Shown piece by piece: positions 2 to 61,608 of a DNA stretch of 64,000 nucleotides. The position numbers were made by a program, and so were the translations under genes. A model generated the notes under the pieces. The model had not been told where the DNA came from, searched no databases, and saw only the letters and a list, made by a program, of their open reading frames with translations. The stretch is taken from assembly GCA_026396515.1 (NCBI GenBank), contig JAPLWQ010000005.1, positions 8,011-72,010 on the forward strand, given 5' to 3'. Numbering within the stretch: position 1 is the first letter of the stretch; every line of letters starts with the position of its first letter. The stretch comes from Candidatus Magasanikiibacteriota bacterium (GTDB lineage: Bacteria > Patescibacteriota > Patescibacteriia > Magasanikbacterales > GWA2-37-8).

Positions 2-3000
2 GGCCCGATTAAAGTCGTGCGCGCGGACGCGCCGACCGATGGTTCAGATGATACCATCAGAAAATATACTGATGTCACCGATACTGACGGCTGGGGTATT
101 GACGAAGACTACACTGTCACCAATGTTTTAAAACCCGGTCTTTGCGCGCTTATACCAAATTATGGCGCTCCGTATGTCACTACCACATTGATCGGTGAAA
201 ATTTTGGCGCCACCAACAATTCGGCGCAGGACAAAGTAATGTTCAGTTCTTCCACCGCGCTAATTCGCAGTTGGGCAAGCCGTTCTGTTGGGGCACGCGT
301 ACCGGCGCTTGGCACTGGGCCGGTGGCAGTAAAAATATATAATGAAGGAGAAGGCAGTAACGCCGTTCGTTTTGATGTGCGCGAATCGCTGGATAAGGAC
401 GCGCCGGTGATTGAAAGCATTAACCCGGAAAAAGGCGCCAAGGGCGAATACATTACCATCATCGGCAAAAATTTTGGAAATAATTTAGGAAAAGTTTTAT
501 TTAAACTTGATGGCGGTGGAGAAGCAAAATATGGCAGTTTCAGTTTTCCGGCTGATTGCGAGGGCTCAACCTGGTCAAATAATCAGATAATCGTAAAATT
601 TCCCGAAGATGATGCGATCGCGGTTAATCATAAATATACCGTTCAGATTCAACGTTCCAGTGATGCGAAAATTGGTCCGATCGGCGCGGAGTTTGCCCTG
701 CAAACCGGCGATCCGGCTCCGGGCATTTGTAAATTAGATCCCAGCTCCGGTCCGGTTCCATTTAATCCGAGCAGTTCAATGAAAATTTATGGTGAGTATT
801 ATCAGCGCGGCGGTGCGTCTTCAACCCCGTATTTCTGGCAACTGGAAGCCTCAACCACCACAATAGAAAATCGCGCTCAAACTACCGACATTGTTCAGGA
901 GACCGATCAACAGGCCGAATTTAGACCGCCAAATGGTTCGCAAACCGGCCCAGTGGTGATGTACCGCGACAAAATGGGAAATAGTTTGCCATTCACTGTT
1001 TATAATTGTTTGGAGAATAACAAAACCTGCTATACGGCGGGCACACATTGTTGCCCGAGTGGCGCCACCGATGCCGGAGCGTGCAAAGAATTATGCGCCG
1101 GAGAAACCAGAGCCACCGGTTATATGTGGCGCTTTAGTACCGGGCCATTTCCTCCGGTACCGAAGGTTTTAGAGCGCTGCGATGCGGGGACCGATGCCGG
1201 AGCCAATTTGCCGTCTCCTTCGCCGGATATTCGTTGGACCGGGCTCGGCAACTTTGACCATTTTAACGCCTGTCGGACCGCCCTCGTGAATATTGAGTTT
1301 ACCATGAAGATGGATCCGCTCACGGTCAATGCAAGTAATATTCAAATATATAAATGCGTCAGCTCGAGTGTTACCACCACCTTTGCCAATGACAATAATA
1401 TTTGCACGCACGAAGGCGACTCTCTTCTTTTAGCCGATGGCAGTTATGACCTTGAGTCGGCGTCCGGTGGTGAGTTCAGTGACACCAGTTTCATGCAGCT
1501 TTTTCCTTCCGCTTTGAAATGGGCGGACAATACTTGGTATCAGGTTGTTTTGAAAAAAGGAATCAAATCATTGGCGAGCCAATATGAATACAAAGGTGAA
1601 ATAAAAACACTGCCATCGCAAAATCTTGTCACCAATAATCCGTGCGGTACTGATACGGCTTATTGTTTTCTTTTTAAAACTAATGCCCGCGACTGTAAAT
1701 TAAACAAGGTGGTTGTTACGCCGTATTCATACTGGACTTCCATTTTGGAGTCGCCGGTTAAATATAGAACCATAAAAAGCAATGCCGATGACTTGGGGTC
1801 GGATTTATATTACAAAGGAAACGGTTTGAGCGATCAGCATTGTATCATGATGGATATGCGCAGTTTCAATTGGAGTTGGGATACGGAACTGCATCCTTAT
1901 TCCACAATCTACGGCACAACCACTTTGCAGAAAGCGCAAGTAACCGCTTTAGCCAATACAGTAGCGGTTGGGCTGACCACTCCGGACAACGCAGTGGCGA
2001 TTCAAGCACGCGCGTATAGAGATGGGAGCAGTGCGCCGACGCCACCCCCGGCAGAAGAGAGTGGAGTTGTTGACGTAACGGAAGGCCTGGTTGCTTGGTG
2101 GAATTTTGATGGGGATGTTGATAGCAATGCGGATGGAAAAAGGGAAACAATAATTGACAGCATTGGTGGCCATAATGGAAATGCGTCTGCGAGCGGTGTG
2201 GAGGACATTGAAGATGGAAAAATTGGGAGAGCATTGAAATTGGATGGAATTAGCGGAAAAATTAACTTGGGCTCTCCGGAAGGTTACCCCAGCGGAACCA
2301 GCCCACGCACTATGTGTGGTTGGGGGAGACCGGAAAGTATAATCGATGGTTATGGCTGGCGCTGGATAATGGCATATGGTAACGGCGCACAAGGGGAAGC
2401 CATGTTTATTGGAATGGATGGCGCCATATTAGACGGTGGCGCTTATGGAGCCGACTATGATCTTACTGTAAATAATTTTTGGACAGCTGGTGTTTGGCAC
2501 CACGTTTGTTTGGTGTATGATGGTGCAAAAGCGATACTATATGGAGACGGGTCAAATAGAAAGGAGATGACTGTAGCTTGGAATCTGCAACCGGTCGCAT
2601 CATTTATAGGCGCACAAGCATCAGGCATCGAATTTTGGAAGGGTGCAGTAGATGATATTAGAATTTATAATCGCGCTTTATCTGCTGAAGAAGTATCGAG
2701 GGTGTATCAGTTTGGTAATTCCGGCGGGAGCGGTGGTTCGGAACCGGAAGGTGGCGGAACTATCACACCTGAAGACAAAACCGGCCAAAGCCCTCTCACT
2801 ATTGATTTATCGCATCCGAAAGTGGTTGATTATTGGCCGAAATGTCTGGAAGCGTGCACCAACGCGGAAATTGGCGCCAAGTTTAATGTGATAATGGCAA
2901 ATGCACATATTAATGAAGGAGTGGTTAAGTTAGCAAGGTGCCTGGACGAAAACTGTACAAGTCTTGAGTATATTACATCAGATTTGAGCAGAGAACTTGA

Positions 3001-6000
3001 TCCGTCTGACCGCCGCTATTTAAAGATGAGTTTTGGCATAGCGGGGGGTGAGCTTGCAACAGATACGGTGTATCAAGTCACTTTGTCGACGACAGGCAGC
3101 AGTACGGCGATGTCAGATATTCAACTCTGGTCCGGTGCCAGCTCAACCAACGAATATGTAAAGGCAAAGCCAATGCAGGAGGCTTTTACTTGGCGTTTTA
3201 GAACAAAAAAAGAAAAATGCGTTCTTGATACGGTAAATATTATCCCGACTCTTTTCCAATCGGTGTTCATCCACGACCGCCATGTTTATTCCGCGGAAGC
3301 GCGGTCGGCGCCCGATGCCTGCGATCCAAAAGGTCAGCGGCTGGATACGTGGTCAATTGATTGGCGCTGGCAATCAAGCTCAACCAGCACTGCCGTGGTA
3401 CAAGAATTTAAAACAAAAGGACGCAGTCCGCTCTGTAATGACAATTGCACCAGGAAAGGAAGCGATGTAACTTCCGATGCCTTGATGTTTGAACCGCTCT
3501 GTGGAAATAATATTATTGAAGCGGGTGAAGACTGCGACCCGCCGTTTATCAGTGTTACCGGAGCTGTGACCACTACTGTGTGTACCTTAAATTGTTTACG
3601 ATTGGGAAATACTAATACTACCAATACAATTCAGACCTCCGATATTGGTTTATGCGGTGATGGATTTGTTAACACTTTAACGCGCAGTGAAGAGTGCGAT
3701 CCGAATAATACGGCGACAAAAGCCGGGTGTTCAAAAAATTGTCTGCATATTGGTTCAATTCCGACTACCGGTGCGGAAGACGTAGCCGCCTCAATTTGCG
3801 GCAACGGAAAGATTGGTATAGGTGAAGAGTGCGATTTGGGCGTGGAGGTGGATTATACAAAAACAAGCTCATCTTTGAAATGCTCACCGACCTGTTTGCA
3901 TTTGGGCACGAGCTTATCGGCCGGGTGGTGCGCGGGAAATACTTCCACGCTGTTTAATGCGGTTGAATACAAGGCCGCCTGCGCTAAATCAAAAAGCCAG
4001 TGCGGAGATGGAATCAGAAGTCCGTCGGAAGATGCCGGTTGTGATTGTGGATTTGCCACCCAAACTCCTCATGGGACTGCACCGTTTGACCACATGTGTT
4101 ATTGCGGTGATTATCTCCATGAAATTTCCGCTGACGCGCTGAATCACTGTCCTAGAGTGAATCCGGCCTGTTCCTCAAATTGTCTCGGCAATTCGCGCTT
4201 GTTGTCTGAATGCGACCCGCGTACCACAACCACTATAGGAGGAATAGATATTGTCACGGCGAGAGAAGGCTGCGGTGAAAATAATCAGTATCTGGGATCG
4301 TCGCTTATGTATTCAGAGCCGTCTCTTTGCGGTGATACTATTGTTGGAATAGGGGAGGAAGCAGACTGCGAGGCGGGCTTTCTATTTACCCATCCTTTCT
4401 TTGATCCGTGGACTTTGGCGACCGGTGTCGGGCTCGGCGCAGTTGCCACAAATTCAAGCGGTATCCCGTCACAAATAGCCGACATTCAAGGCACCGGTTC
4501 CTCAACGGTTAATAATAAAACATACAGAAAATCAGATATCGGGAAATTTGAAATTATCTGCGGATTTAGCCAGGATGTTGAATGTAAAGATTTGCTCGGG
4601 GATGACTATGGTTTAGCCAGCAATTCCTGTTGCATGCCGCGTCCGTGGCTTATCAGCACTTACCCTATCAAAAATGACGCCCATCCGCCGTCTGACATTT
4701 GTCCGAATACATATATTGAAGCCAAATTTAATCACCTGATAGATGAAGCGTCTTTGGCCAATCATATATATGTGGCCCGTGGATATGATACCACCACTTC
4801 TTGTCCGGCCGGTTCTACCAACGTGTCGCCGTTAGTATTAGACGTTAAGACGTTGGGGCTCGATAGCGGGCCGTGGTATAAGCGCTTGTGGCATGGCATC
4901 GTCAATTGGTTTGCCCGAATTTTTGGCGACGAAACCAAAGCCGCGCCGTTTGTGATAAATTCCACAGTATATTGTTCGGAAGATGGTTTGCTTGCTCCGG
5001 CAAAAGTGTTTGTGGAAGGTCAAATGATCGGCGTGGGCACCACTTCCACCGTTATGATCCGTTTGCAGAGGCCATTAGCGACCAGCAGTGATTATGTGGT
5101 TATTCTCGGCCATGGTGTCAGAGATATACAGGGGGTTAGCATAGCCACTTCAACCTTGCAGTGGAAATTTATCACCGGCGATAAAATTTGTGAGTTGAAT
5201 AAAGTGGCGATTACTCCTGATAATTACATGTATAATAGGGCCGGTACTTCAAATAATTTTATTGCCAGTTCAACCGCGGTAAATGGACAAGTAATTCAGC
5301 CGGTAGACGGCTACAGGTGGGAATATGAATGGAGCCCGATGCAAAGCGAGTACGTTTCTTTAACCAACACCACCGACACGATCAATTTGGTGACCGCAAA
5401 AAACAGAAATGGCGAACTCGATTTATTGGCTACCACCAAATTTACCGAAAATTTATTTTTCCCCGACTCGCCGTCTCTAAGCGGCAAATCGCGCATTACG
5501 GTTTTCATCTGCGAAAACCCGTGGCCGTCTTCTTCCACGGTTCAGTTTCCATTTAAAGATATTCAATACGATTTTTCTTCTTATTATTGCATGGATAAAG
5601 GCAGTCCGGGTTTTGCCGATGATATGCCATTCGTAACTTCTTCGCGTGTTTGGATCCAAGAAGCGAACCCGTTCAAAAAACGATATTTGTTTACCAATTC
5701 TGATAATAAGGATGCCATTGGCATGCAAGTGTTTTACAACACAAGACACCTGTCAGTTAATGATTGGTATTTGGCACAGGGCTTCAGCGGTAATATGAAT
5801 TCGCTGAAGATTGACGGTTATGACGCGATTAGTGATAACAATAATTATTATATTGATGCTTTGGATTATTCTCAACCAGAGGAAGGTCTTTATTCCAACA
5901 TTTATCAATTTAGCATAAATAATGATGCTACGGCGGACGGCAAAGAAATATTCAAGCAGATGATGGAAAATTTGAAGTTTAACATGGGGTTGAAGAATGA

Positions 6001-9000
6001 CAAATATTGCGCCGCCGGGTACGGCTTGCTGGATACGGTCAATTTCAATTTGACCTGTGAAAATGATTTGGATTGTCTGGCGAAAATGGAAGCGCTTAAA
6101 AAAGTTGAACCGGGGGCAGCGGACACTTATAGCTGTTTAAATCAAAAAGACAAACTGCAAAGAAACTACCAGCGTCTTAAGGACTTACGCCAGACGATTG
6201 GCATATTAAATTATGGCAGAGGCATGATTGCGTATTGGCCGTTGGATAGTATCTCAAACAGTTCCACTCCGGATACGACCGGCAGAGGGTTTGTCGGAGC
6301 AGCCATGAATGGCGTTGGCGGCAGCATCCAGACAACATACGGCTCGGAAAGCGGGGCGATTCAAATAAAATCGCCGGCATATGTTGAAATTGGAAAACCG
6401 ACCGACATTGGCGACCGATCATTCACTATCGCGCATTGGATAAAAACAACCTCTTCGCAGTACCAGGCATATACTGTTTCCAATTGTAATCTCGGTGACG
6501 GATATCGTATGGGAATTTCACAGGGTAAAATGGTTGCTTTGATTGGCAATGCGACAGATTATAAATTGGCTTTTAATTGTTCTTCTAGCACGGTTAACGA
6601 TGGAAAATGGCATCACATTGCCGCGGTTTTTGATCGGGGCAATTCCATAAAATGTTATGTTGATGGAGTGCTAGACGGAACGGTAAGTTTATCAGGCAGG
6701 AAATTCCTAGGGATGAAAGAGGATACTACCCACAAGACGCGCATTGGAACACCGCAGTGTATTTCAGATAGATGTATGAAATGCACGACGAATGGCTTGC
6801 CATCCGGCCCGCTTATTCCCGGCTGTGACAGTGTTTTCATCGGAGAGTTTGACGATGTTCGTATATATAGCCGGATTTTGCCCGATGCGGAACTTTACGA
6901 TTTAGCGCAGGGAGGCATTCACCAATATAAAGGCAATTATCCGATAGTAAAAGAAAATTCTTATCTAAACGGCCAGGCCCTAAGTGTTTGGGGCAATTCA
7001 TGGACTCAACTTGGGACAGAAGCGGGTGCTACACTGCCGGTCGACCCGATAAATAAATTGGTTCAAAGCGGAACTTGTTTTCAGAAAACGGGCCTTGCCT
7101 ATTTGCCTTGCTATAAAGATTCTGACTGTGCCACGCCGCCGCAACTTGGCAGTAGACAAAGTTATTGGTCGGCTGATTATGAAACAGCAGATGAAGGTAT
7201 TTTGAAAAATAATGCCGCCATTGAGGGTTCTGTTGACTATGACACGGGCAAAGGGCATGGTATGGCCTTTCTGTTTGCCGGTGATGCCTCCGCTGAAGTG
7301 ATGGCGGCGCATAAAGCAGAATATAATAGCACCCAGTTCACATTATCCGCCTGGATATATCCGACCAAAAAGAATACCGCCACTATTATTAAACACGGCG
7401 GTACTGATGCAAATGGTATTAGCCAGGGCGGTTTTGTGCTTGAGTATAGCGGCTTTTGGTCGGGTTTGGTCGGGCCAAGTATTGTTTCCAGGTTTAATAA
7501 TGGAACCGTGCGGTTTGCAGTCTTTACGACTTCAACTTCAGAAAATAAATATTATGCCCTGGATTCCAATGGCACTCCGCTGGCACTAAATCAATGGCAT
7601 CAGGTGGTAGTTACCGTTGATAGAGACAATAAGACAATGGATATGTACATTGACGGGGTTCACCAGACAAATCAGGCAAGGCGCCCCGATGGACAATTGG
7701 CGGATTTCAGCACCGGTTTCCCGATGGAGACGAATATTGCCAATATTGAAATTGGTCAAAGCTTTAACGGCAAAATTGATAATATTGCCTATTATGATTC
7801 TGCATTTGACGCGACCGAGACTCTTGACCTCTATAAAGGGTTGTGCATATTGCATGACCCGACAACCGGCTGGAGCGCTGAAGACCGCCGGTTTAGTTTT
7901 GCCTGTAATACCACCTCCTATGCTTATCGGTATCAATATGTAAGTTCAACCAACTCATTTTTACTGCGCGCGAACATGGAACGCTTTGAAAATATTCCGC
8001 CTGCCATTAGCAGTGCTTTTTATAAAGATTTTTATGGTGACTACGCGAATTTGTCGACTGGCATCTGCATCGGAACCAACGAGATTTCTTCGCCTTACAA
8101 TTTAGTGTGCGGTGATGGAGTGCTCGGCGGATCCGAAGTGTGCGACCCGCCTGGAAAAATTGAAATTGATTCATCTCCTTGCCCGACTGGCCAAGCAAAA
8201 AAGAGAATATGTTCCGCGGGTTGCGCTTCTTGGGGTGCATGGACAGATGTAGGTTGCTATTCTGTCACCGGCGGTTCTTGTGGAGATGGTAAAGTGCAAA
8301 CGCTTGCCGGAGAGAAGTGTGATGACGGCGCTTTGAACGGCCAGAGCGGGCGGTGCGCGCTTGGGTGTCAGGGTGTGGCAAATACGTGTGGTAATGGACT
8401 CCTTGATTACGGGGAATTTTGCGATACGGTAACAGCAACAGGCCAATGCGAATTTATATCTGGCGCTGAATATACTATTGACCCAAAAAGTGAGCCCATA
8501 TTCTACTTTTTGGTAGATTTGACCGGGACGATGAATACCGGATTTCCCGGTGCTCCGCCCCCGGGGAATAGAGTGGCTATGGTAAAGTATTCGTTACCCC
8601 TTATTGCTGAACGTTTTAGCGACCCTGATTCCAAAGCCAAAATAGGAGTCGGATCGTATAATTGCCCTGTCAATTCTTTCCATAATAAAAATTGGCTGTC
8701 AGGCACAAAGGGGTATTTTACTTCTTCTCAGGTGACGACAGCCATCTCGACCATGGATCACCAGAACGGTCAAAATACTGACAGTGTTTTTGATTGGTTT
8801 AGGGATACAATTTATCCGATATTAAATAGTGGAGCGGACGCGGGTAAACCAATTAATCTGGTTTATATTACCGACGGGGGCGCTTCGGGGTCGTGCACGC
8901 CTTACGGCGCTGCATGCCCAACTGCCAAAATTACCGCTTTGGCTGCTGAGCCCTACAAAGTAGTTACGCATATCATCGGAGTCGGCGCTGCGTCGGGATG

Positions 9001-9838
9001 TAATCTCGCAGCCATGGCGGCCGCGGGCGGTGGCCAATATCATCAGATTACTACGGGCGCTGATGCGTTAGCTGATGCAATGGTTGAAATATACAAAAAA
9101 CCCTGCGAACAATACGCACAATATAATGCCTATTCCTGCCGTTGGGATTGTAAGGCATATGGGGAATATTGCGGAGATGGTATTGTACAAACAGAAAGCG
9201 GCGAAGAATGCGAGGCGGATAAAAATTGCACTCTCACGAGCGGCGAGGCAGGAAAACAAAAATGCGATATGTGTAAGCTCGGAGACTGTGAAGCTGTTGT
9301 GGAAGTGACAGTACCCGGCCAATGCGGAAATGACGTGGTAGAAGAAGACGAGGCCTGTGATCGCGGAGATTATAATGGAATAGCCTGCGACCCGCTGTAT
9401 CCGCAGAAAAATTGTACCTATTGTTCGTCAGATTGTCGTAATGTGATAACCGTGGATAACTTATGCGGGAACGGAGTACCGGACTTCACAGCAGGAGAAA
9501 TGTGCGATCCTGAAGGGCCGACAAAAGGTTTTCTGCGCTTACTTTATACTTATATTGATAAATGTTTTCCGTGTAAAAATGATTGTTCCGGGTGGGATGT
9601 TGCCCTGGGTGTAACCAATAGCTCGGGAAGCGGATGCGCAGGTACCACCTATGGTTATTGTGGTGACGGCAATAAAGATACGGTGCTTTTACCGACCGGG
9701 GCTTCTTCAGGTTATGAACAATGCGATGGAGACGATGGTGTTGAAGCTTGTACGAACAGTTGTCCATCTGGTCAAGTACGCGTGTGTTCGGCCGGGTGTA
9801 TGTGTAGTTGTGGATATATGACCGTTGGGCCATTATAG
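2..9838 (+). CDS. Giant secreted adhesin-like multidomain protein, 5'-truncated at the window edge. It carries IPT/TIG-like N-terminal repeats, three LamG (concanavalin-like) domains, about 20 Cys-rich CGDG..E.CD repeats and a VWA domain
   Basis: The 3273-aa ORF (track: 17..9838) has a reading frame open back to nt 2, so the true start lies upstream. IPT-like motifs are visible (ITIIGKNFG). Three LamG-like blocks end in DDIRIYNRALSAEEV, DDVRIYSRILPDAELYDL and NIAYYDSAFDATETLDLY. Repeats such as CGDGIVQTESGEECD and CGNGKIGIGEECD recur. A VWA-like block reads FYFLVDLTGTMN...ITDGGASG...IIGVGAA. Confidence 0.8.
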   Translation, partial: GPIKVVRADAPTDGSDDTIRKYTDVTDTDGWGIDEDYTVTNVLKPGLCALIPNYGAPYVTTTLIGENFGATNNSAQDKVMFSSSTALIRSWASRSVGARVPALGTGPVAVKIYNEGEGSNAVRFDVRESLDKDAPVIESINPEKGAKGEYITIIGKNFGNNLGKVLFKLDGGGEAKYGSFSFPADCEGSTWSNNQIIVKFPEDDAIAVNHKYTVQIQRSSDAKIGPIGAEFALQTGDPAPGICKLDPSSGPVPFNPSSSMKIYGEYYQRGGASSTPYFWQLEASTTTIENRAQTTDIVQETDQQAEFRPPNGSQTGPVVMYRDKMGNSLPFTVYNCLENNKTCYTAGTHCCPSGATDAGACKELCAGETRATGYMWRFSTGPFPPVPKVLERCDAGTDAGANLPSPSPDIRWTGLGNFDHFNACRTALVNIEFTMKMDPLTVNASNIQIYKCVSSSVTTTFANDNNICTHEGDSLLLADGSYDLESASGGEFSDTSFMQLFPSALKWADNTWYQVVLKKGIKSLASQYEYKGEIKTLPSQNLVTNNPCGTDTAYCFLFKTNARDCKLNKVVVTPYSYWTSILESPVKYRTIKSNADDLGSDLYYKGNGLSDQHCIMMDMRSFNWSWDTELHPYSTIYGTTTLQKAQVTALANTVAVGLTTPDNAVAIQARAYRDGSSAPTPPPAEESGVVDVTEGLVAWWNFDGDVDSNADGKRETIIDSIGGHNGNASASGVEDIEDGKIGRALKLDGISGKINLGSPEGYPSGTSPRTMCGWGRPESIIDGYGWRWIMAYGNGAQGEAMFIGMDGAILDGGAYGADYDLTVNNFWTAGVWHHVCLVYDGAKAILYGDGSNRKEMTVAWNLQPVASFIGAQASGIEFWKGAVDDIRIYNRALSAEEVSRVYQFGNSGGSGGSEPEGGGTITPEDKTGQSPLTIDLSHPKVVDYWPKCLEACTNAEIGAKFNVIMANAHINEGVVKLARCLDENCTSLEYITSDLSRELDPSDRRYLKMSFGIAGGELATDTVYQVTLSTTGSSTAMSDIQLWSGASSTNEYVKAKPMQEAFTWRFRTKKEKCVLDTVNIIPTLFQSVFIHDRHVYSAEARSAPDACDPKGQRLDTWSIDWRWQSSSTSTAVVQEFKTKGRSPLCNDNCTRKGSDVTSDALMFEPLCGNNIIEAGEDCDPPFISVTGAVTTTVCTLNCLRLGNTNTTNTIQTSDIGLCGDGFVNTLTRSEECDPNNTATKAGCSKNCLHIGSIPTTGAEDVAASICGNGKIGIGEECDLGVEVDYTKTSSSLKCSPTCLHLGTSLSAGWCAGNTSTLFNAVEYKAACAKSKSQCGDGIRSPSEDAGCDCGFATQTPHGTAPFDHMCYCGDYLHEISADALNHCPRVNPACSSNCLGNSRLLSECDPRTTTTIGGIDIVTAREGCGENNQYLGSSLMYSEPSLCGDTIVGIGEEADCEAGFLFTHPFFDPWTLATGVGLGAVATNSSGIPSQIADIQGTGSSTVNNKTYRKSDIGKFEIICGFSQDVECKDLLGDDYGLASNSCCMPRPWLISTYPIKNDAHPPSDICPNTYIEAKFNHLIDEASLANHIYVARGYDTTTSCPAGSTNVSPLVLDVKTLGLDSGPWYKRLWHGIVNWFARIFGDETKAAPFVINSTVYCSEDGLLAPAKVFVEGQMIGVGTTSTVMIRLQRPLATSSDYVVILGHGVRDIQGVSIATSTLQWKFITGDKICELNKVAITPDNYMYNRAGTSNNFIASSTAVNGQVIQPVDGYRWEYEWSPMQSEYVSLTNTTDTINLVTAKNRNGELDLLATTKFTENLFFPDSPSLSGKSRITVFICENPWPSSSTVQFPFKDIQYDFSSYYCMDKGSPGFADDMPFVTSSRVWIQEANPFKKRYLFTNSDNKDAIGMQVFYNTRHLSVNDWYLAQGFSGNMNSLKIDGYDAISDNNNYYIDALDYSQPEEGLYSNIYQFSINNDATADGKEIFKQMMENLKFNMGLKNDKYCAAGYGLLDTVNFNLTCENDLDCLAKMEALKKVEPGAADTYSCLNQKDKLQRNYQRLKDLRQTIGILNYGRGMIAYWPLDSISNSSTPDTTGRGFVGAAMNGVGGSIQTTYGSESGAIQIKSPAYVEIGKPTDIGDRSFTIAHWIKTTSSQYQAYTVSNCNLGDGYRMGISQGKMVALIGNATDYKLAFNCSSSTVNDGKWHHIAAVFDRGNSIKCYVDGVLDGTVSLSGRKFLGMKEDTTHKTRIGTPQCISDRCMKCTTNGLPSGPLIPGCDSVFIGEFDDVRIYSRILPDAELYDLAQGGIHQYKGNYPIVKENSYLNGQALSVWGNSWTQLGTEAGATLPVDPINKLVQSGTCFQKTGLAYLPCYKDSDCATPPQLGSRQSYWSADYETADEGILKNNAAIEGSVDYDTGKGHGMAFLFAGDASAEVMAAHKAEYNSTQFTLSAWIYPTKKNTATIIKHGGTDANGISQGGFVLEYSGFWSGLVGPSIVSRFNNGTVRFAVFTTSTSENKYYALDSNGTPLALNQWHQVVVTVDRDNKTMDMYIDGVHQTNQARRPDGQLADFSTGFPMETNIANIEIGQSFNGKIDNIAYYDSAFDATETLDLYKGLCILHDPTTGWSAEDRRFSFACNTTSYAYRYQYVSSTNSFLLRANMERFENIPPAISSAFYKDFYGDYANLSTGICIGTNEISSPYNLVCGDGVLGGSEVCDPPGKIEIDSSPCPTGQAKKRICSAGCASWGAWTDVGCYSVTGGSCGDGKVQTLAGEKCDDGALNGQSGRCALGCQGVANTCGNGLLDYGEFCDTVTATGQCEFISGAEYTIDPKSEPIFYFLVDLTGTMNTGFPGAPPPGNRVAMVKYSLPLIAERFSDPDSKAKIGVGSYNCPVNSFHNKNWLSGTKGYFTSSQVTTAISTMDHQNGQNTDSVFDWFRDTIYPILNSGADAGKPINLVYITDGGASGSCTPYGAACPTAKITALAAEPYKVVTHIIGVGAASGCNLAAMAAAGGGQYHQITTGADALADAMVEIYKKPCEQYAQYNAYSCRWDCKAYGEYCGDGIVQTESGEECEADKNCTLTSGEAGKQKCDMCKLGDCEAVVEVTVPGQCGNDVVEEDEACDRGDYNGIACDPLYPQKNCTYCSSDCRNVITVDNLCGNGVPDFTAGEMCDPEGPTKGFLRLLYTYIDKCFPCKNDCSGWDVALGVTNSSGSGCAGTTYGYCGDGNKDTVLLPTGASSGYEQCDGDDGVEACTNSCPSGQVRVCSAGCMCSCGYMTVGPL

Positions 9839-18001: not shown

Positions 18002-19240
18002 TTACACGTAAAGAGGGAATTTTTTTGTCAGTTCCACGACTTGTGATCGAATGGCCGCAAGTTTTTCTTTATCCGTGTGATTAATTACCGCTTCGTTGAT
18101 CCACTCGGCGATTTGACGCATTTCAGTTTCCTTCATTCCGCGGGTGGTGAGCGCAGGCGTGCCTAGCCGGATACCGGAAGGATCCATCGGGGAGCGAGGA
18201 TCATTTGGCACCATATTTTTATTTACAGTTATTCCGGCTTCGTCCAAAGCAATTTGCGCCTCCTTGCCGGAAATATTTTTATTTGTTAGATCAATCAGCA
18301 GCAAATGATTATCGGTTTGGCCGAAACAAATTTTATAATCGCGTTTTTTTAATTCTTCTTCAAGTATTTTTGCGTTTTTAATAACTTGTACAGCATATTC
18401 TTTGAATTCCGGTTCGAGCGCTTCTTTGAACGCCACCGCTTTGGCTGCGATATTATTTTCATGCGGGCCGCCCTGGAAACCGGGGAACACGGATTTATCT
18501 ATCGCCTTGGCGAATTTTTCTTTGCACATAATCATGCCGCCGCGCGGCCCGCGCAGTGTCTTATGCGTCGTGGTCGTAACGATATCAAAAAATGGCACTG
18601 GGCTTTCCATGGCACCGCCGGCAATCAGTCCGGCGATGTGGGCGATGTCAGCCATTGTCACTGCGCCGACCTCGTCGGCGATTTCTTTAATTTTTTTCCA
18701 ATCGATCAGGCGGGAATAGGCGCTGTATCCGACAAGAATGATCTTCGGTTTGTGTTCGAGCGCCATGGCGCGAAGATTATTCAAATCAATCAGACCGTCA
18801 GCGCCGGTTTGGTAGCGGACGAAATTAAATAATTTTGCCATGTAGGTGACCGGATGGCCGTGCGTCAGGTGCCCGCCGTGGGCGAGGTCCATTCCGAGTA
18901 CAGTATCACCCGGTTGAAGCAAAGCAAAATATACGGCGATATTGGCCGGCGCGCCGGATAACGGCTGGACATTCACATGTTCAGCGCCAAATATTTTTTT
19001 AGCGCGTTCAATCGCCAGTGTTTCCACCTCGTCAATATATTCGCAGCCGCCGTAATAGCGTTTGCCCGGGTAGCCCTCGGAATATTTATTTGTAGCGACC
19101 GAACCGAGCGCATCCAAAACTGCCGGTGAAACAAAATTTTCCGAAGGGATCATTTCCAGGCCGTTTTCTTGCCGCTGTTTTTCTTTGGCAATAGCCGTGG
19201 AAATTTCAGAGTCGTATTGTTCTAAGTTTTGTTTATGCAT
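18002..19240 (-). CDS. glyA: Serine hydroxymethyltransferase
   Basis: 412 aa, beginning [37 protein letters not shown]. Confidence 0.95.
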
Positions 19241-21027
19241 AAATCCTTAATCATGTAAGTATTATTTAATTTGTATCCGAGTTTTCGGTAATAATCGCGA
19301 ACGCCAACACCGGAAATTACGGCGATTTTAGAGGCCTTTGATTTGGCGGCCAGTTTCTCCGCTTCCTTAACTAATTTTACGCCCATACCTTTGTGTTGTG
19401 AAGCGCGGGTATTTCTTGCTCCAATTTTGAGCATTTGGCCGTAGGTATGAAGTTCGCGGATAAAGGCCTGACGAGTGTCATTGCGAGCGAAGCGAAGCAA
19501 TCCCGCGGTTTTCTGAACTGACAAGAGATTGCTTCGTCGGCCTTCGACCTCCTCGCAATGACAAATCCTCAAACGGCAAAAAGCGTAAGCTACCTGTCGC
19601 TTGGCGTCTTCATAACTTAAAAAATATTCCGTGCCGCCGGAGGCCTGGTATTTATCGACAAAAAGCTTTGGCCGGCCGAGATTGCCGCGTCGTCGCTCTA
19701 CTCCTCCTCGCAATGACAATGGAGAAGCGTGACCCACTTCGCGGCAGCGTAGACAATTGCAGCGCAAATTGCGGCGTTTCATTTCTGCTTGGATCACTTG
19801 GCGCAAATTGGTTACGCGATTGCCGGCAATGATGTGATGACCCGGAATATCCCGAATAAGGCGCGATATCCGAACGTAGCGGGGAACAGTAGTTTTAAAA
19901 TTTATCAGGAGTTCAACTAATTTTTTATCGCTATAGGGTTTAAATTTTCCGGATTTAACCCATTTGAAAAGAGGAGATTTTTTTACCACTGTGCAAGGAT
20001 AAATTTTTATCATATCCGGTCGATATGACGGATTAGAAAAAATTTTCGTAAGCATTTGTGCGTCTTTGGCCGGTGTTGCGCCGGGCAGCTGCGGCATTAG
20101 ATGATAATCAACCTTAAAGCCGTAATTTTTTAAAAGCTCGGTGGCGCGTTTTGTCTCCGCCGTATCGTGCCCGCGCCTTATAATTTTTAAAATTTTGTCA
20201 TCTGTTGTTTGCACACCCAGTTCAATTCTGGTACAGCCAAGTTCGCGCATCGTAAGAATATTTTTTTCGGTGATATGGTCGGGACGCGTTTCCAGAGTCA
20301 CGCCGATAATTCGGTGTTTTGCAATTTCATTTTTCTTTTGGGCCAAATATAATTGATGTTGAAGTTTTTTTAGTGTGTCATGCTGAACTTGTTTCAGCAT
20401 TTTGACGTGGTTGGTGATAGATCCTGAAACAAGTTCAGGATGACTTTTTGAATTGTTTGCCGCTTCAAAACATCGCAAGATAAACCAATACTGATAGGCG
20501 AGGGGATAGGCATTCCAAGTTCCCCCTTTGACAATTAATTCAATTTTGTCGGTCGGGTGGCCGTTGCTAGTTAAAGTTTTTATGCGCTCGCATACTTGCC
20601 GGTGCGGATCAAATTGCAGTGACAGAGCACGTGCAGCCGCCGGTTCGTCGCTGATATAACTTTTTGGCATCTCGGGTTCATCCGGACAATAAATACATTG
20701 CCCCGGGCATTTGTATGGTTTGGTCAAAACAGTAATAATCGCTACGCCGGACATTGTTCGCACGGCGCGCTTGGTCAGCAAATATTCCAGAGCCGGAGAT
20801 TTTTTTATCTTGCCTTTCGCGAGCATGGCGTGATATACTCGGAGCAAATCGGTTTTGCGCGACAAATCCTCATGAATTTTTGAACCGCGCATTTCCGAGC
20901 GTAATACAGCCGAAAAATCGTCCGCTGTTTTAGGGATTTTTTTTAGCAGTTTATATATAATTTTTTCGTGTAGATCAGCCATATGGATAAGCGTAAAGCT
21001 CAAGAAATTGTACGTCAAATGAGGCAA
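19222..21027 (-). CDS. Elp3-like radical-SAM plus GNAT enzyme (tRNA wobble-uridine modification family). It carries an in-frame palindromic repeat insertion
   Basis: The radical-SAM cluster [12 protein letters not shown] is followed by a C-terminal GNAT-like block ([37 protein letters not shown]). The start may instead be the ATG at 20982, which lies back-to-back with the ATG of the divergent gene. Confidence 0.75.
19477..19563. repeat. 87-bp nested palindromic element inserted in frame in the Elp3-like CDS, with a partial second copy at 19680-19718
   Basis: The termini tgtcattgcgag and ctcgcaatgaca form a perfect 12-bp inverted repeat. An internal inverted repeat (gaagcaatc / gattgcttc) is nested within. 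The length, 87 bp, equals 29 codons. The 16-nt string cctcctcgcaatgaca recurs at 19548 and 19703. Confidence 0.65.
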
Positions 21028-25919: not shown

Positions 25920-26036
25920 TGAAAACGAATCGGATATTTGTCTTGGACACGGGTCTCCTCGCCTGTGGGCTCGTCACCCTAATGCTCATTCCGGCTATAA
26001 CGCCGGAATTCCGCGATTGTCCAAAACAAAAATCCG
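25920..26036. repeat. MITE-like hairpin element with 29-bp terminal inverted repeats
   Basis: gaaaacgaatcggatatttgtcttggaca (25920-25948) pairs with tgtccaaaacaaaaatccgattcgttttc (26008-26036), matching at 27 of 29 positions. Confidence 0.6.
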
Positions 26037-26093
26037 ATTCGTTTTCGTATTATTGACTATATAGGAATTAAGTGTTAGAATTGTCAAAATTTT

Positions 26094-26171: not shown

Positions 26172-26414
26172 ATGGAATATTTCGTTTATATTTTAGAAGA
26201 TGAGAGTGGAAAGAAATACAAAGGCATGACAAATGATTTAAATAGACGTTTCCATGAACATCTTCGAGGCAAAACCAAAACAACGAAACGGATGAAGGAT
26301 TTAAGATTGGTCTATTCTGAAGAATTTAACACATTTGAGGAGGCGAGAAAGAGAGAATTATATTTTAAGACAGCCGCAGGTCGTAAATTCATAAAGAAGA
26401 CTTTGGGTGTTTAG
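26172..26414 (+). CDS. GIY-YIG nuclease-domain protein (YhbQ/COG2827-like)
   Basis: 80 aa, reading YFVYILEDESGKKYKGMTNDLNRRFHEH...RE. Its stop codon overlaps the 5' end of tRNA-Val by 10 nt. Confidence 0.75.
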   Translation: MEYFVYILEDESGKKYKGMTNDLNRRFHEHLRGKTKTTKRMKDLRLVYSEEFNTFEEARKRELYFKTAAGRKFIKKTLGV

Positions 26415-26478
26415 CTCAGTTGGTTAGAGCGACTCGTTTACACCGAGTAGGCCAGGGGTTCGAATCCCTTAACACCCA
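26405..26478 (+). tRNA. tRNA-Val (anticodon TAC)
   Basis: A manual cloverleaf fits: acceptor GGGTGTT/AACACCC, D-stem GCTC/GAGC, anticodon stem ACTCG/CGAGT with loop TTTACAC, and a T-loop TTCGAAT. Confidence 0.85.
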
Positions 26479-26480
26479 CA

Positions 26481-31675: not shown

Positions 31676-32011
31676 TTAATTACTCACATTCTTCGGAGCC
31701 GGTTCTATTGGCCTATTTTTGATAGTTTTCGGATTTGGGCTGTAAAGAGGGTTCCGTATGCGCCATCTTTCCACATATTGGCCGATTCCGCGTTCTGCCA
31801 GCTTATTTCTGACCGTAGTATGCCTCTGTGACCACTTGACAAGACTTTCAAAGTTGATTTTATAACGGCCGGCTACCACAGCATAAGTAACTTCCTGATT
31901 AGCAATGGCGCGCCTAACCGTAAGGGAACTAACGCCGAAAAGCTTAGCCGCTTCAGATACTGAAAGCCGGATTAGCTCTTTTTGGGTCTTATTGTCAGTT
32001 TGTTCAACCAT
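31676..32011 (-). CDS. Excisionase/MerR-like helix-turn-helix DNA-binding protein
   Basis: 111 aa containing LSVSEAAKLFGVSSLTVRRAIANQEV (HTH_17-like). Confidence 0.6.
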   Translation of the reverse strand: MVEQTDNKTQKELIRLSVSEAAKLFGVSSLTVRRAIANQEVTYAVVAGRYKINFESLVKWSQRHTTVRNKLAERGIGQYVERWRIRNPLYSPNPKTIKNRPIEPAPKNVSN

Positions 32012-32033
32012 ATTTCTCTTTTGGGCTAAAATT

Positions 32034-32238
32034 TGTGTACGCTAGTGTATACAAATCATAGCAAATAGGTTGGTTTTGTCAAGGGTAGGGGAGAGATAAT
32101 AGAAATTTTTTGGTATTTCATCATATACAGCTATCTGTTTGTGTACGCTAGTGTATACAAAATTTATATAGGTTTGCTAAAATTAGCCATTATTGTTATG
32201 TCGCTTTACATCTATTTTTGTGTACGCTAGCGTACACA
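32034..32238. promoter_or_regulatory. Three 20-bp palindromic operator-like repeats between the divergent HTH gene and the ECF sigma gene
   Basis: tgtgtacgctagtgtataca occurs at 32034 and 32140. tgtgtacgctagcgtacaca at 32219 is a perfect palindrome. Copy 1 lies 23 bp upstream of the HTH start codon. Confidence 0.6.
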
Positions 32239-32485
32239 AAAATATGTCTTGTATTTTTTGATTTATAACGAACGATGGTGCAAATCGAAATCATAATTTA
32301 GAGAGATATTTTAGAAATATTTCTTTATATAATGCACACATCCATTATTTGACACAGGCCCATATGGCTGTTATCATTATATCTATCTCATTCTTGTTTT
32401 GGCCGGTGAAACGGTCATTTTTAATAGAACAAGAAAGACGCCGTTTGCGAAGTGTAACAATTATTAACTTTATTCGTCTACTAAG

Positions 32486-33040
32486 ATGCCAGGTAAATTA
32501 AGCGAAAAAATACTGCTTTACCGGTTGCAGACGAAGCAAGATCCTGAAGCTTTTACCGAACTATACGACTCATATGTAAAACGAATTTACCGCTTCGTTT
32601 TTTTTAAGGTACCCGGGCACGAAGAGGCGGAAGACATTACATCCGAGGTATTTTTAAAAGTTTGGAATCACATTGCGGAAAACAAAGAAATAAAAAGTTT
32701 TAGCGGCCTTCTGTATCGGGTTGCCAGAAATTGTATCATTGATCTTTACCGCTCAAAGTCATATCAGCCAAATCCATTGTTGCTTTCCGAACTGCCCGAG
32801 GGTATTGAACCGAGTGATAAGGGAATTGCAGTAGAGAAAATTTCCGTTTCATCTGAAGCGGAGGAGATGATCAAGGCGATCAAAAAGTTGAAACAAGAAT
32901 ATCAGGAAGTGCTGACGCTAAAATATGTGGACGAATTAAACGTCGACGAAATTGCGGAAATAACAGGTAAAGGACAAATTGCAGTGCGGGTGACTCTACA
33001 CCGGGCGATGAAGAAATTAAAAATAATGGTGGAAAAATAA
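32486..33040 (+). CDS. ECF-type sigma-70 family RNA polymerase sigma factor
   Basis: Region 2 (YRFVFFKVPGHEEAEDITSEVFLKVW) and region 4 (LTLKYVDELNVDEIAEITGKGQIAVRVTLHRAMKKL) are both present. Confidence 0.8.
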   Translation: MPGKLSEKILLYRLQTKQDPEAFTELYDSYVKRIYRFVFFKVPGHEEAEDITSEVFLKVWNHIAENKEIKSFSGLLYRVARNCIIDLYRSKSYQPNPLLLSELPEGIEPSDKGIAVEKISVSSEAEEMIKAIKKLKQEYQEVLTLKYVDELNVDEIAEITGKGQIAVRVTLHRAMKKLKIMVEK

Positions 33041-60909: not shown

Positions 60910-61608
60910 ATGCCAGTACCAGAACTACGAGATATTATTAGAAAACTGTCAATAATTAAACACAGGGGATATATACAGAGTTTAAGAAGGGGCCCGACAG
61001 GTATCGGATTTACTCTAGAAACACTATTAGATATCGAGGAAAATAACATAAGTGCTCCAGATTTAGGAACCATCGAACTAAAAGCCCAACGAGAGAACCA
61101 CGCAGGCATGACAACACTATTTACATTTAATAATAAAGCGTGGCAAATTAATCCGTTAGAGGCAATTAGAAGATATGGTAGCCCCGATAAAGACGGTAGA
61201 ATGGGTATGTACTATACAATGAGTGCGGTACCCAATAGCGCGGGTTTGTTATTAGTGATTGATGACGAACTTGTGTCGATCAGACATATAGACGGCACTA
61301 TTATTGCGACATGGAAACTAGCCGACATTGAAAAGCGCTTCGATGCCAAAGTTAAAAACGTTTTATTAGTTAAAGCAAAAACGGAGGAAAGGGACGGGGT
61401 CGAATATTTTCTTTATGACCGCGCTCGTCTTTTATCCGGCGGAACAACAAAAAATATTCTAAAAAGTCAATTTGAAAATGGCCAATTGCTTATTGACCTT
61501 AGGCTACACGACAAAGGGACCACGGCCAGAAATCACGGAACAGGCTTCCGTGTATATGAAAGCAACTTAGAAAACCTTTACGAACGTATAGAAGAAATTG
61601 ATTTTTAA
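60910..61608 (+). CDS. Putative cognate Type II restriction endonuclease (possibly MvaI/BcnI-like)
   Basis: 232-aa ORF starting 3 nt after the MTase stop. It contains APDLGTIELK, a PD-ExK-like segment. Confidence 0.45.
   Translation: MPVPELRDIIRKLSIIKHRGYIQSLRRGPTGIGFTLETLLDIEENNISAPDLGTIELKAQRENHAGMTTLFTFNNKAWQINPLEAIRRYGSPDKDGRMGMYYTMSAVPNSAGLLLVIDDELVSIRHIDGTIIATWKLADIEKRFDAKVKNVLLVKAKTEERDGVEYFLYDRARLLSGGTTKNILKSQFENGQLLIDLRLHDKGTTARNHGTGFRVYESNLENLYERIEEIDF

Follow-up and report, generated by a model that had tools for sequence, protein, structure and literature searches.

The question raised by this locus is how palindromic DNA has come to lie within the coding sequence of an intact gene for Elp3, the radical-SAM/GNAT enzyme of tRNA U34 cm5 modification, and whether it matters to the enzyme. 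The gene is carried on a 64,000-nt stretch of a contig from a Candidatus Magasanikiibacteriota bacterium (JAPLWQ010000005.1, positions 8,011 to 72,010; hereafter the window), which belongs to the Patescibacteria, or candidate phyla radiation (CPR). A preliminary description, made from the letters alone, had noted a single palindrome in this gene and likened it to the Rickettsia palindromic elements (RPEs). Our analysis indicates that the gene very probably contains five tagged repetitive extragenic palindromic (REP) units, arranged as two head-to-head dimers (E1 and E3, the latter being the palindrome first noted) and a singleton (E2).

Tagged units within the Elp3 gene

E3 has perfect 12-nt terminal inverted repeats, consisting of TGTCATTGCGAG at 19476-19487 and its exact reverse complement at 19552-19563, which enclose a 10-nt inner inverted repeat (19493-19502 and 19527-19536). 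Thus, both the ends and the nested repeat of the preliminary description were borne out, and the peptides that it quoted were correctly read. The length given there, 87 bp or exactly 29 codons, was not: E3 spans 88 bp when counted from its outer T to its outer A, or 86 bp if only GTC to GAC is counted. RNA of the E3 region is predicted to fold with a minimum free energy of -42.7 kcal/mol (z = -3.9 relative to shuffled sequences). Because the loops of its two units differ, E3 is a heterodimer; the basal 5-bp stem of unit A is predicted in the DNA fold, yet it is weak alone (z = -0.5).

The description had also reported a 40-nt partial copy 155 bp downstream. The copy and its spacing stand, but rather than being partial it is a complete 41-nt unit, E2, with the same 5-bp basal stem (ATTGC/GCAAT) as the units of E3. 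A 17-nt exact direct repeat links the two elements (19548-19564 is identical to 19703-19719), and E2 holds the third copy of TGTCATTGCGAG at 19707-19718. With up to one mismatch allowed, this 12-mer occurs three times in the window, each time in E3 or E2, whereas ~0.27 copies would be expected by chance.

A third element in the same gene, E1, had been overlooked. It was found by an inverted-repeat scan of the whole window (24-nt arms, 92% complementary), and its RNA fold is -29 kcal/mol with z = -8.05. The tails of its units are separated by a 14-nt spacer. Units A and B differ by a compensating C:G to G:C swap, which keeps the hairpin of each unit while weakening the long palindrome; an arrangement of this kind is also present in two other CPR contigs. 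No GTCAT...ATGAC palindrome besides E1 and E3 was found when the 64-kb window was scanned.

Table 1. Tagged palindromic units of the window and the gene in which they lie
Feature	Position	Strand	Description
Elp3 ORF	19222-21027	-	intact, 601 aa as listed
E3	19476-19563		88-bp head-to-head dimer of two TGTC-tagged units; encodes aa 489-517, CHCEE...FARND
E3 unit A	19476-19504	+	TGTC tag, ATTGC stem, 12-nt loop GAGCGAAGCGAA, GCAAT stem, CCC tail
E3 spacer	19505-19524		20 nt between units A and B
E3 unit B	19525-19563	-	TGTC tag, ATTGC stem, 22-nt loop with GTCG/CGAC mini-hairpin, GCAAT stem, CTC tail
E2	19678-19718	-	single TGTC-tagged unit of 41 nt, E3 subfamily; encodes aa 437-450
E1	20376-20445		70-bp head-to-head dimer of canonical tagged REP units; encodes aa 195-217
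E1 unit A	20376-20403	+	TGTC tag, 8-bp stem ATGCTGAA/TTCAGCAT, 5-nt loop CTTGT, TTT tail; DNA fold -6.8 kcal/mol, z = -4.15
E1 unit B	20418-20445	-	AGTC tag, 8-bp stem ATCCTGAA/TTCAGGAT, 5-nt loop CTTGT, CTA tail; DNA fold -6.1 kcal/mol, z = -4.12

The location within an Elp3 gene was confirmed. The single open reading frame (ORF) scores 527 bits against the NCBIfam Elp3 model TIGR01211, and Pfam Radical_SAM, Radical_SAM_C and GNAT are all matched. Its likely start is the ATG at 20982, giving a protein of 586 aa, which is the length of the NCBI protein P0001. P0001, annotated as Elp3 in the record of a metagenome-assembled genome (MAG), is 100% identical to the window protein, and its database neighbours are from Patescibacteria. 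A PDB search with the window protein matched solved Elp3 structures (best E = 2e-118), and the Elp3 motifs are unbroken: Cx4Cx2C at aa 107-115, CNCLRCRE at aa 423-430 and QHKGMG at aa 544-549.

Units of this design have been described as the CGTC-tagged REP superfamily, comprising families CGTC-1 to CGTC-4 (Di Nocera, De Gregorio & Rocco 2013, BMC Genomics 14:522; PMC3733652). These have an unpaired terminal tetranucleotide, CGTC, with TGTC (often) and CCTC as variants, a stem that almost always opens with complementary A-T residues, and a short 3-nt tail with the consensus CCA; in the four described families the stem is 8-9 bp and the loop 4-5 nt. Head-to-head dimers, with spacers mostly of 20-100 bp, are the commonest arrangement and singletons also occur, in-frame intragenic copies encode 20-30 aa and are sometimes found twice in one gene, and neither a dedicated transposase nor a flanking gene for a REP-associated tyrosine transposase (RAYT) is known (PMC3733652). 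In the window the tag is TGTC in four of the five units and AGTC in the fifth. All of the stems start with A-T (ATTGC/GCAAT, ATCCTGAA/TTCAGGAT and ATGCTGAA/TTCAGCAT), and the tails are CCC, CTC, CTC, CTA and TTT, leaving the full CCA consensus unmatched.

We surveyed 108 dimers (216 arms) from ~200 loci. The stem begins exactly at the A after GTC in 82% of the 216 arms, compared to 12% of shuffled arms; a C follows the ..AT closure of the stem in 171 of the 178 stem-bearing arms; and GTC is preceded by C or T in 210 of 213 arms, over many phyla. Among the stem variants, many of which are compensatory between subfamilies, are ATTGC, ATCCT, ATTCCCGC, ATCCTGAA and ATCCCGAT, and the ATTGC...GCAAT-C closure of the E3 type was found in 113 arms, again from many phyla. 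The flanks of the elements are invariably T|GTCAT...ATGAC|A. Beyond this invariant pattern, we found no single target sequence at the junctions, and none of the ~40 junctions inspected showed a target-site duplication.

These results bear on the idea that E3 is a classical MITE (miniature inverted-repeat transposable element), that is, a deletion derivative of an insertion sequence (IS) whose terminal inverted repeats are recognized by a DDE transposase. A small element with perfect 12-nt terminal inverted repeats and no coding capacity would suit such an origin, as would the precedent of MITEs inserted in-frame within genes (PMC10969869). Nevertheless, we regard it as highly unlikely. Besides the missing target-site duplications, what is conserved is the single tagged hairpin, which exists also as a singleton, and not the long palindrome; the swap in E1 preserves the former at the expense of the latter; the ends are identical across phyla; and a partial scan of the window, in which 20 ORFs of 111-284 aa were compared with Pfam, gave no transposase, the Y1 type included.

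On the basis of its sequence, E1 is a canonical member of the CGTC-tagged superfamily. Both of its units have the expected dimensions, an 8-bp stem and a 5-nt loop, with z ~ -4.1 in the single-stranded DNA fold, and the peptide ..ELVSGS read from unit B matches 'RHSELVSGS' of a Sulfurovum CGTC-2 intragenic unit (Additional file 3, PMC3733652). E3 and E2 share with the superfamily the tag, the A-T start and the C of the tail, and E3 also its dimer organization; their loops hold small GC-rich hairpins. We treat the two as a putative variant subfamily rather than as one of the four described families, since a passage of the 2013 survey speaks of Bradyrhizobium CGTC-1 with 'loops of different length' and allows that bulged units may have gone undetected (PMC3733652). 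The E3/E2 type may correspond to those Bradyrhizobium units.

The start of the host gene has a feature of its own. The likely Elp3 ATG (20982, minus strand) abuts the ATG of a methyltransferase gene (20983, plus strand), and the divergent genes are without any spacer, so both promoters would have to sit inside the neighbouring coding sequence. The orthologous locus L001 has the same arrangement (10000/10001).

Read-through and position in the protein

The closest Elp3 orthologues (L001, L124 and L125) are 81-85% identical to the window protein outside the loops. Within the loops they are shorter at all three sites, having 19, 8 and 8 aa where the window has 37, 20 and 33 aa, in agreement with the lineage-specific insertion that had been proposed. 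E1 is missing from L001, L124, L125 and L126, and E2 from these four and from L002; E2 is present in L003 (P0002) as an orthologous insert with an identical junction and 90% identity. At the E3 site, the conserved 8-aa turn IDKNGLYP of the three closest orthologues is replaced by the 33-aa segment ICHCEE...ARNDTRQ. The frame is therefore not preserved by the length of the element, as had been supposed, but because the net change relative to the empty orthologues is a multiple of three. This net gain is 25 codons, and thus part of the old loop must have been lost.

Single open frames cover at least 96% of the match in all 84 CPR Elp3 genes, and between genes the tag is read in all three frames (as CH.., SL.. 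or VI..). Since all of the genes are open and all three frames of the tag are used, the elements appear to be translated rather than removed. Removal would take the form of an intron, a bulge-helix-bulge intron or a mini-intein excised from message or protein to leave an enzyme without the extra loops. The very stable RNA hairpins could be read in favor of this, but we consider it extremely unlikely, given that the keeping of the frame and the avoidance of stops in 84/84 genes would be needless if the RNA were spliced, that the Elp3 copies inspected never use the frame in which the ATGACA end contains a stop, that segments of 14-30 aa lack any intein motif, and that an Rfam scan of the Elp3 gene yielded only noise at E values up to 10.

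The inserts were then located on an AlphaFold model of the window Elp3, which was built on 25 sequences and has a mean predicted local distance difference test score (pLDDT) of 71 and a predicted template modelling score of 0.75. In the model, E2 forms a loop (aa 436-449, pLDDT < 50) after the central-linker Cys motif CNCLRCRE, at the junction of the radical-SAM and KAT domains. E3 forms a loop (aa 493-513, pLDDT < 50) inside the KAT domain, between strands 479-490 and 519-528, and E1 falls in a region with block-mean pLDDT of 55-63. Consequently, the earlier statement that the loops fall between the radical-SAM and acetyltransferase domains holds for E2 and not for the 88-bp E3, while the expectation of surface loops is in keeping with the position of the inserts in low-confidence loops between secondary-structure elements. 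The insert loops, of 14-30 residues, are probably disordered.

E3 just precedes the ELH motif (E525/H527) on strand 519-528. By motif, E525 and H527 would correspond to E386 and H388 of Dehalococcoides Elp3 (PMC6367351). We considered a location of E3 in the acetyl-CoA blocking loop but rejected this, because this correspondence makes the blocking loop the one after that of E3, at aa ~529-546, beyond E525/H527.

Recurrence in Elp3 and copies elsewhere

We compared 84 CPR Elp3 loci: 80 metagenome loci with flanks of up to 10 kb, three fetched orthologues and the window itself. This amounted to 138.5 kb of DNA inside Elp3 and 980 kb outside, with 790 neighbouring ORFs of at least 150 aa. Inside Elp3 there were 13 strict dimers, and outside there were 21, all of which were intergenic, at gene ends or false. 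Tagged units numbered 52 inside Elp3, in 22 genes, compared to 58 in intergenic or terminal positions outside and 12 deep in other ORFs; part of these 12 is background, since 2-9 hits of that kind were also obtained with control tags. Unit density in Elp3 (~0.35/kb) is near that of intergenic DNA (~0.45/kb) and ~50 times that of other coding DNA. Per gene, a unit deep in the ORF was seen in 22/84 Elp3 genes and in at most 8/790 neighbours, an odds ratio of ~35 with p ~1e-17. These statistics are inflated by the common ancestry of the genes and by the ranking of the loci, which was made on similarity to a REP-bearing query; in addition, each neighbouring gene family is represented far less often in the sample than Elp3.

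Fitch parsimony on a neighbour-joining tree gave 11, 9 and 10 state changes at sites 1, 2 and 3, the count for site 2 including two doubtful calls, so that 7-9 is safer. Roughly 25-30 gains or losses are thus needed at the three loops. Differing subfamilies occupy the same site in close relatives, and E3-type copies at the same Elp3 site in L128 and L132 have wholly different spacers. Loop length at these sites varies across the genes, from 0 to 72 residues.

Other repeats occupy these loops as well. Runs of the heptamer GTGAACT / AGTTCAC, read in-frame as FTVHSSQFT or VNCELRTVNC, are found at site 2 of L002, at site 3 of L003 and in P0019, and represent a second kind of repeat colonizing the loops that take REPs. 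A recurrent insert peptide without a GTCAT tag, SPLLPEEGARGRW / SPLLHRGEGRVRS, is present at site 2 of L135, L181, L183, L163, L164 and L187 and probably derives from a different repeat family.

A search for further copies, as the preliminary description had proposed, gave no other copy of the 12-mer in the 64 kb. Outside the window it was productive: copies lie in intergenic DNA of CPR loci from related genomes, and genomes of at least 120 species contain exact 11-nt E3 ends spaced 45-75 nt apart. Among the matches listed, the groups represented are Alpha- and Gammaproteobacteria, Bacteroidota, Chloroflexi, Planctomycetota, Cyanobacteria and Patescibacteria, with Bradyrhizobium, sphingomonads, Micavibrio, Mucilaginibacter, Pedobacter and Microcoleus as hosts beside Chloroflexi, Planctomycetota and Patescibacteria, and the copies are mostly between genes or at gene ends. 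In-frame hosts in CPR include a Mur ligase and an enzyme dependent on pyridoxal phosphate. For the cross-phylum loci, our test for spanning ORFs is unreliable at high GC, where long spurious ORFs abound, and we accepted only those low-GC cases that Pfam bore out (GuaA, UvrA and a transglycosylase), of which GMP synthase (GuaA) and UvrA are well-supported in-frame hosts in low-GC Gammaproteobacteria. The peptides listed for intragenic units in 2013, VIPAKAGI, SFPRKRES, SFLRKQES...DSRFRGND and RHSELVSGS (PMC3733652), recur in CPR Elp3 loops and flanks.

A capped protein search with the E3 and E2 peptides together yielded no candidate. A HMMER search with the 30-aa E3 peptide against 1.84 billion representatives returned 10 matches, all of them ORFs through tandem REP arrays, so that host genes were left unsurveyed by it. 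These metagenome proteins (P0121-P0130) traverse arrays of E3-type dimers with identical spacers and periods of 33-58 aa; because they read through such arrays, dimers of the E3 subfamily can evidently amplify in tandem elsewhere. Two homologous small CPR proteins (L140:14853-15359 and L183:17360-17839), which share the motif ..KNLKWSQIIYE.., each have a TGTC REP unit in their Lys/Glu-rich N-terminal part, and this family may be a second recurrent in-frame host.

The distribution of copies leaves practically no room for the view that the inserts are ordinary lineage-specific loops, or an assembly or inversion artefact, and palindromic by chance. It is true that loops at these sites vary in all CPR Elp3 genes. 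However, the same DNA is found outside genes and in unrelated genes and phyla, the identical protein stands in an NCBI MAG record, independent assemblies agree in having inserts of this kind at these sites, and both the chance expectation for the 12-mer and the z values of the E3 and E1 folds given above argue against coincidence. The preliminary description had named two observations that would speak against it: the same segment in orthologues without palindromic DNA, and absence of the palindrome elsewhere together with an origin by local inversion artefact or assembly error. Neither was found.

We therefore favor the following account. Tagged REP units would be small, non-autonomous and probably mobile DNA elements that normally reside between genes. 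Copies would have landed in three structurally permissive loops of Elp3 and persisted because the net insertion was in-frame and free of stops. They would be translated as extra loops that leave the catalytic motifs untouched, with ribosomes having to unwind mRNA hairpins of -29 and -43 kcal/mol, and would be near-neutral, tolerated passengers with no functional part in the enzyme. Movement might, as for GTAG REPs with RAYT, proceed via single-stranded hairpin DNA and an enzyme acting in trans.

Several observations weigh against this account. The E3 and E2 units miss the dimensions of the superfamily, having a 5-bp basal stem and loops of 12, 22 and 24 nt, and as single units fold no better than shuffled sequences (z = -0.5 and +1.0). 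None of the E3-type peptides (HCE, SLRG, LAMT) is in the intragenic list of PMC3733652. All five window units sit in one gene, within the 64 kb of this genome that was covered. Mobility is deduced, and no polymorphism between filled and empty sites was seen within one population. In the comparison with L003, E2 has 90% nucleotide identity against a gene average of 73%, placing it in the top 4% of windows, which could mean constraint and not neutrality. Finally, a passenger model leaves the ~35-fold enrichment per Elp3 gene unaccounted for, and plain tolerance does not explain the near-absence of units in the ~790 neighbouring ORFs.

It is conceivable, then, that the Elp3 inserts are not neutral, the loops being targeted by the mobilizing machinery or the inserts kept by selection, whether as basic flexible peptides on a tRNA-binding enzyme or as strong mRNA hairpins near domain boundaries. 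The excess in Elp3 over its neighbours, the density resembling that of intergenic DNA, the repeated changes at the three sites, the different subfamilies at one site in close relatives and the conservation of E2 are in line with this. So are the natural tag-like GGTCAY (Gly-His codons) that site 2 adjoins and the unexplained bias of intragenic REPs for genes of DNA repair and tRNA/RNA modification (PMC3733652). Nevertheless, insertion points scatter over 2-30 nt per loop, hence there is no single target nucleotide, and the use of three reading frames yields unrelated peptides. The same loops accept unrelated repeats and vary over their full range of length without REPs, suggesting plain permissiveness; most Elp3 genes, those of the closest relatives included, have no insert; and the inflation of the statistics applies here as well. 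On balance, we consider targeting or selection unlikely, and tolerated passengers remain our preferred reading.

In kind, the element is not new, because the Rickettsia work had already revealed in-frame palindromes and a catalogue of the superfamily appeared in 2013. What is new is the host phylum. Patescibacteria have streamlined genomes in which few repeats are usually expected, and the superfamily appears to be active there, or to have been so recently. A full-text search of the literature for the literal 11-mers returned only unrelated primers, and one for CPR together with palindromic elements returned nothing specific. The ATTGCGAG-type unit, with its short basal stem and long structured loop, is a widespread variant in many phyla that has apparently been overlooked. 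The hot spot is also new: Elp3 has been colonized many independent times at the same three loops while its neighbours were spared, and this repeated colonization is the only point on which the findings extend past the literature searched. That CPR Elp3 is truly favored by TGTC-tagged REPs, as a place to land or to be retained, seems doubtful to us. If it were so through targeting, it would imply recognition of, for instance, tag-like or hairpin-prone DNA in Elp3, and if through selection, it would mean that basic loops or mRNA hairpins contributed by REPs tune an enzyme of tRNA modification. In either event, the loops of Elp3 would offer a natural assay for the movement of CGTC REPs, and an example of one enzyme remodelled again and again by selfish hairpins. 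The many independent and datable filled and empty sites suit the study both of REP movement and of the neutrality of inserts.

Some other features of the window deserve mention. A palindromic motif, TTTGTGTACGCTAG(T/C)GTA(T/C)ACAAA, is present in three copies (32032-32055, 32133-32162 and 32213-32245) flanked by an HTH_17 gene (31676-32011, minus strand) and a sigma-70 family gene (32486-33040, plus strand); the TTTGTGTACGCTAG motif looks like an operator for the helix-turn-helix protein. The segment 56000-62000 has a low GC content (0.37-0.39 compared to ~0.45 elsewhere) and holds a gene for an MvaI/BcnI-type restriction endonuclease (ORF 60910-61608); it is probably an acquired restriction-modification island. 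An inverted repeat at 25921-26046, with 29-nt arms that are 93% complementary and 68 nt apart, is not of the TGTC type and sits ~360 bp upstream of tRNA-Val(TAC) at 26405-26479. A giant ORF (17-9838, at least 3273 aa), which runs off the start of the window and is syntenic with a gene for a 3730-aa protein in L001, contains no REP units.

Comparison with known repeat families

The units in Elp3 resemble CGTC REPs (PMC3733652) in the unpaired 4-nt tag, the A-T start of the stem and, in four of the five units, a short tail starting with C. They also resemble them in organization, with head-to-head dimers (spacer 20 nt), singletons, heterodimers and several units per gene, as well as in having in-frame intragenic copies of 20-30 aa. 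Among the 20 window ORFs scanned, no transposase appeared. They differ in the 5-bp stem and the structured loops of 12-24 nt of E3 and E2. Furthermore, neither Patescibacteria nor Elp3 is covered in the text and supplements of the 2013 survey, nor does that survey describe one gene family as being hit repeatedly at three fixed loops (PMC3733652).

The likeness to RPEs suggested in the preliminary description is supported by the architecture of the units, the lineage-specific inserts, the copies elsewhere and the location in loops. It is supported because the units belong to the CGTC/TGTC superfamily, which includes RPE-4 and RPE-6, the R. conorii elements RPE-6 and RPE-4 being families CGTC-1 and CGTC-4 (PMC3733652). 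The link is drawn through this equation and not through Rickettsia sequence. RPEs, too, lie in-frame in housekeeping genes, to which they add surface peptide segments (Ogata et al. 2000, 2002), and the window palindromes are likewise inserted in-frame in segments compatible with the fold. RPE-1, however, is longer (~150 bp, PMC10969869) and confined to Rickettsia, and RPEs have struck many unrelated genes of R. conorii, whereas in these CPR loci the copies within ORFs are mostly in one gene family.

Intragenic bacterial MITEs, such as ERIC, Coxiella QMITE1 and the Anabaena MITEs, are small non-coding repeats that can also fuse in-frame (PMC10969869). MITEs have terminal repeats, target-site duplications and an IS parent, whereas here there is no duplication, and no IS parent was present in the loci fetched.

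The conserved unpaired tetranucleotide with a variable hairpin, and the lack of target-site duplication, are shared with the GTAG REPs and with REPINs (REP doublets forming hairpins), which are mobilized by RAYT. Like REPINs, the elements are inverted doublets able to form either one long or two short hairpins. In contrast, the tag here is (C/T)GTC and not GTAG or GT(A/G)G, and the ORFs scanned included no RAYT/Y1. REPINs, moreover, lie almost wholly outside genes.

The Neisseria repeat dRS3 has been equated with CGTC-1 units (PMC3733652). Its ATTCCC..GGGAAT type of stem occurs in CPR Elp3 loops, where it is read as VIPAKAGI, whereas dRS3 itself is intergenic and lies in large clusters. dRS3 repeats serve as integration sites for filamentous prophages that use an IS110/Piv-type recombinase, and this is no more than a lead to an enzyme that might mobilize the units.

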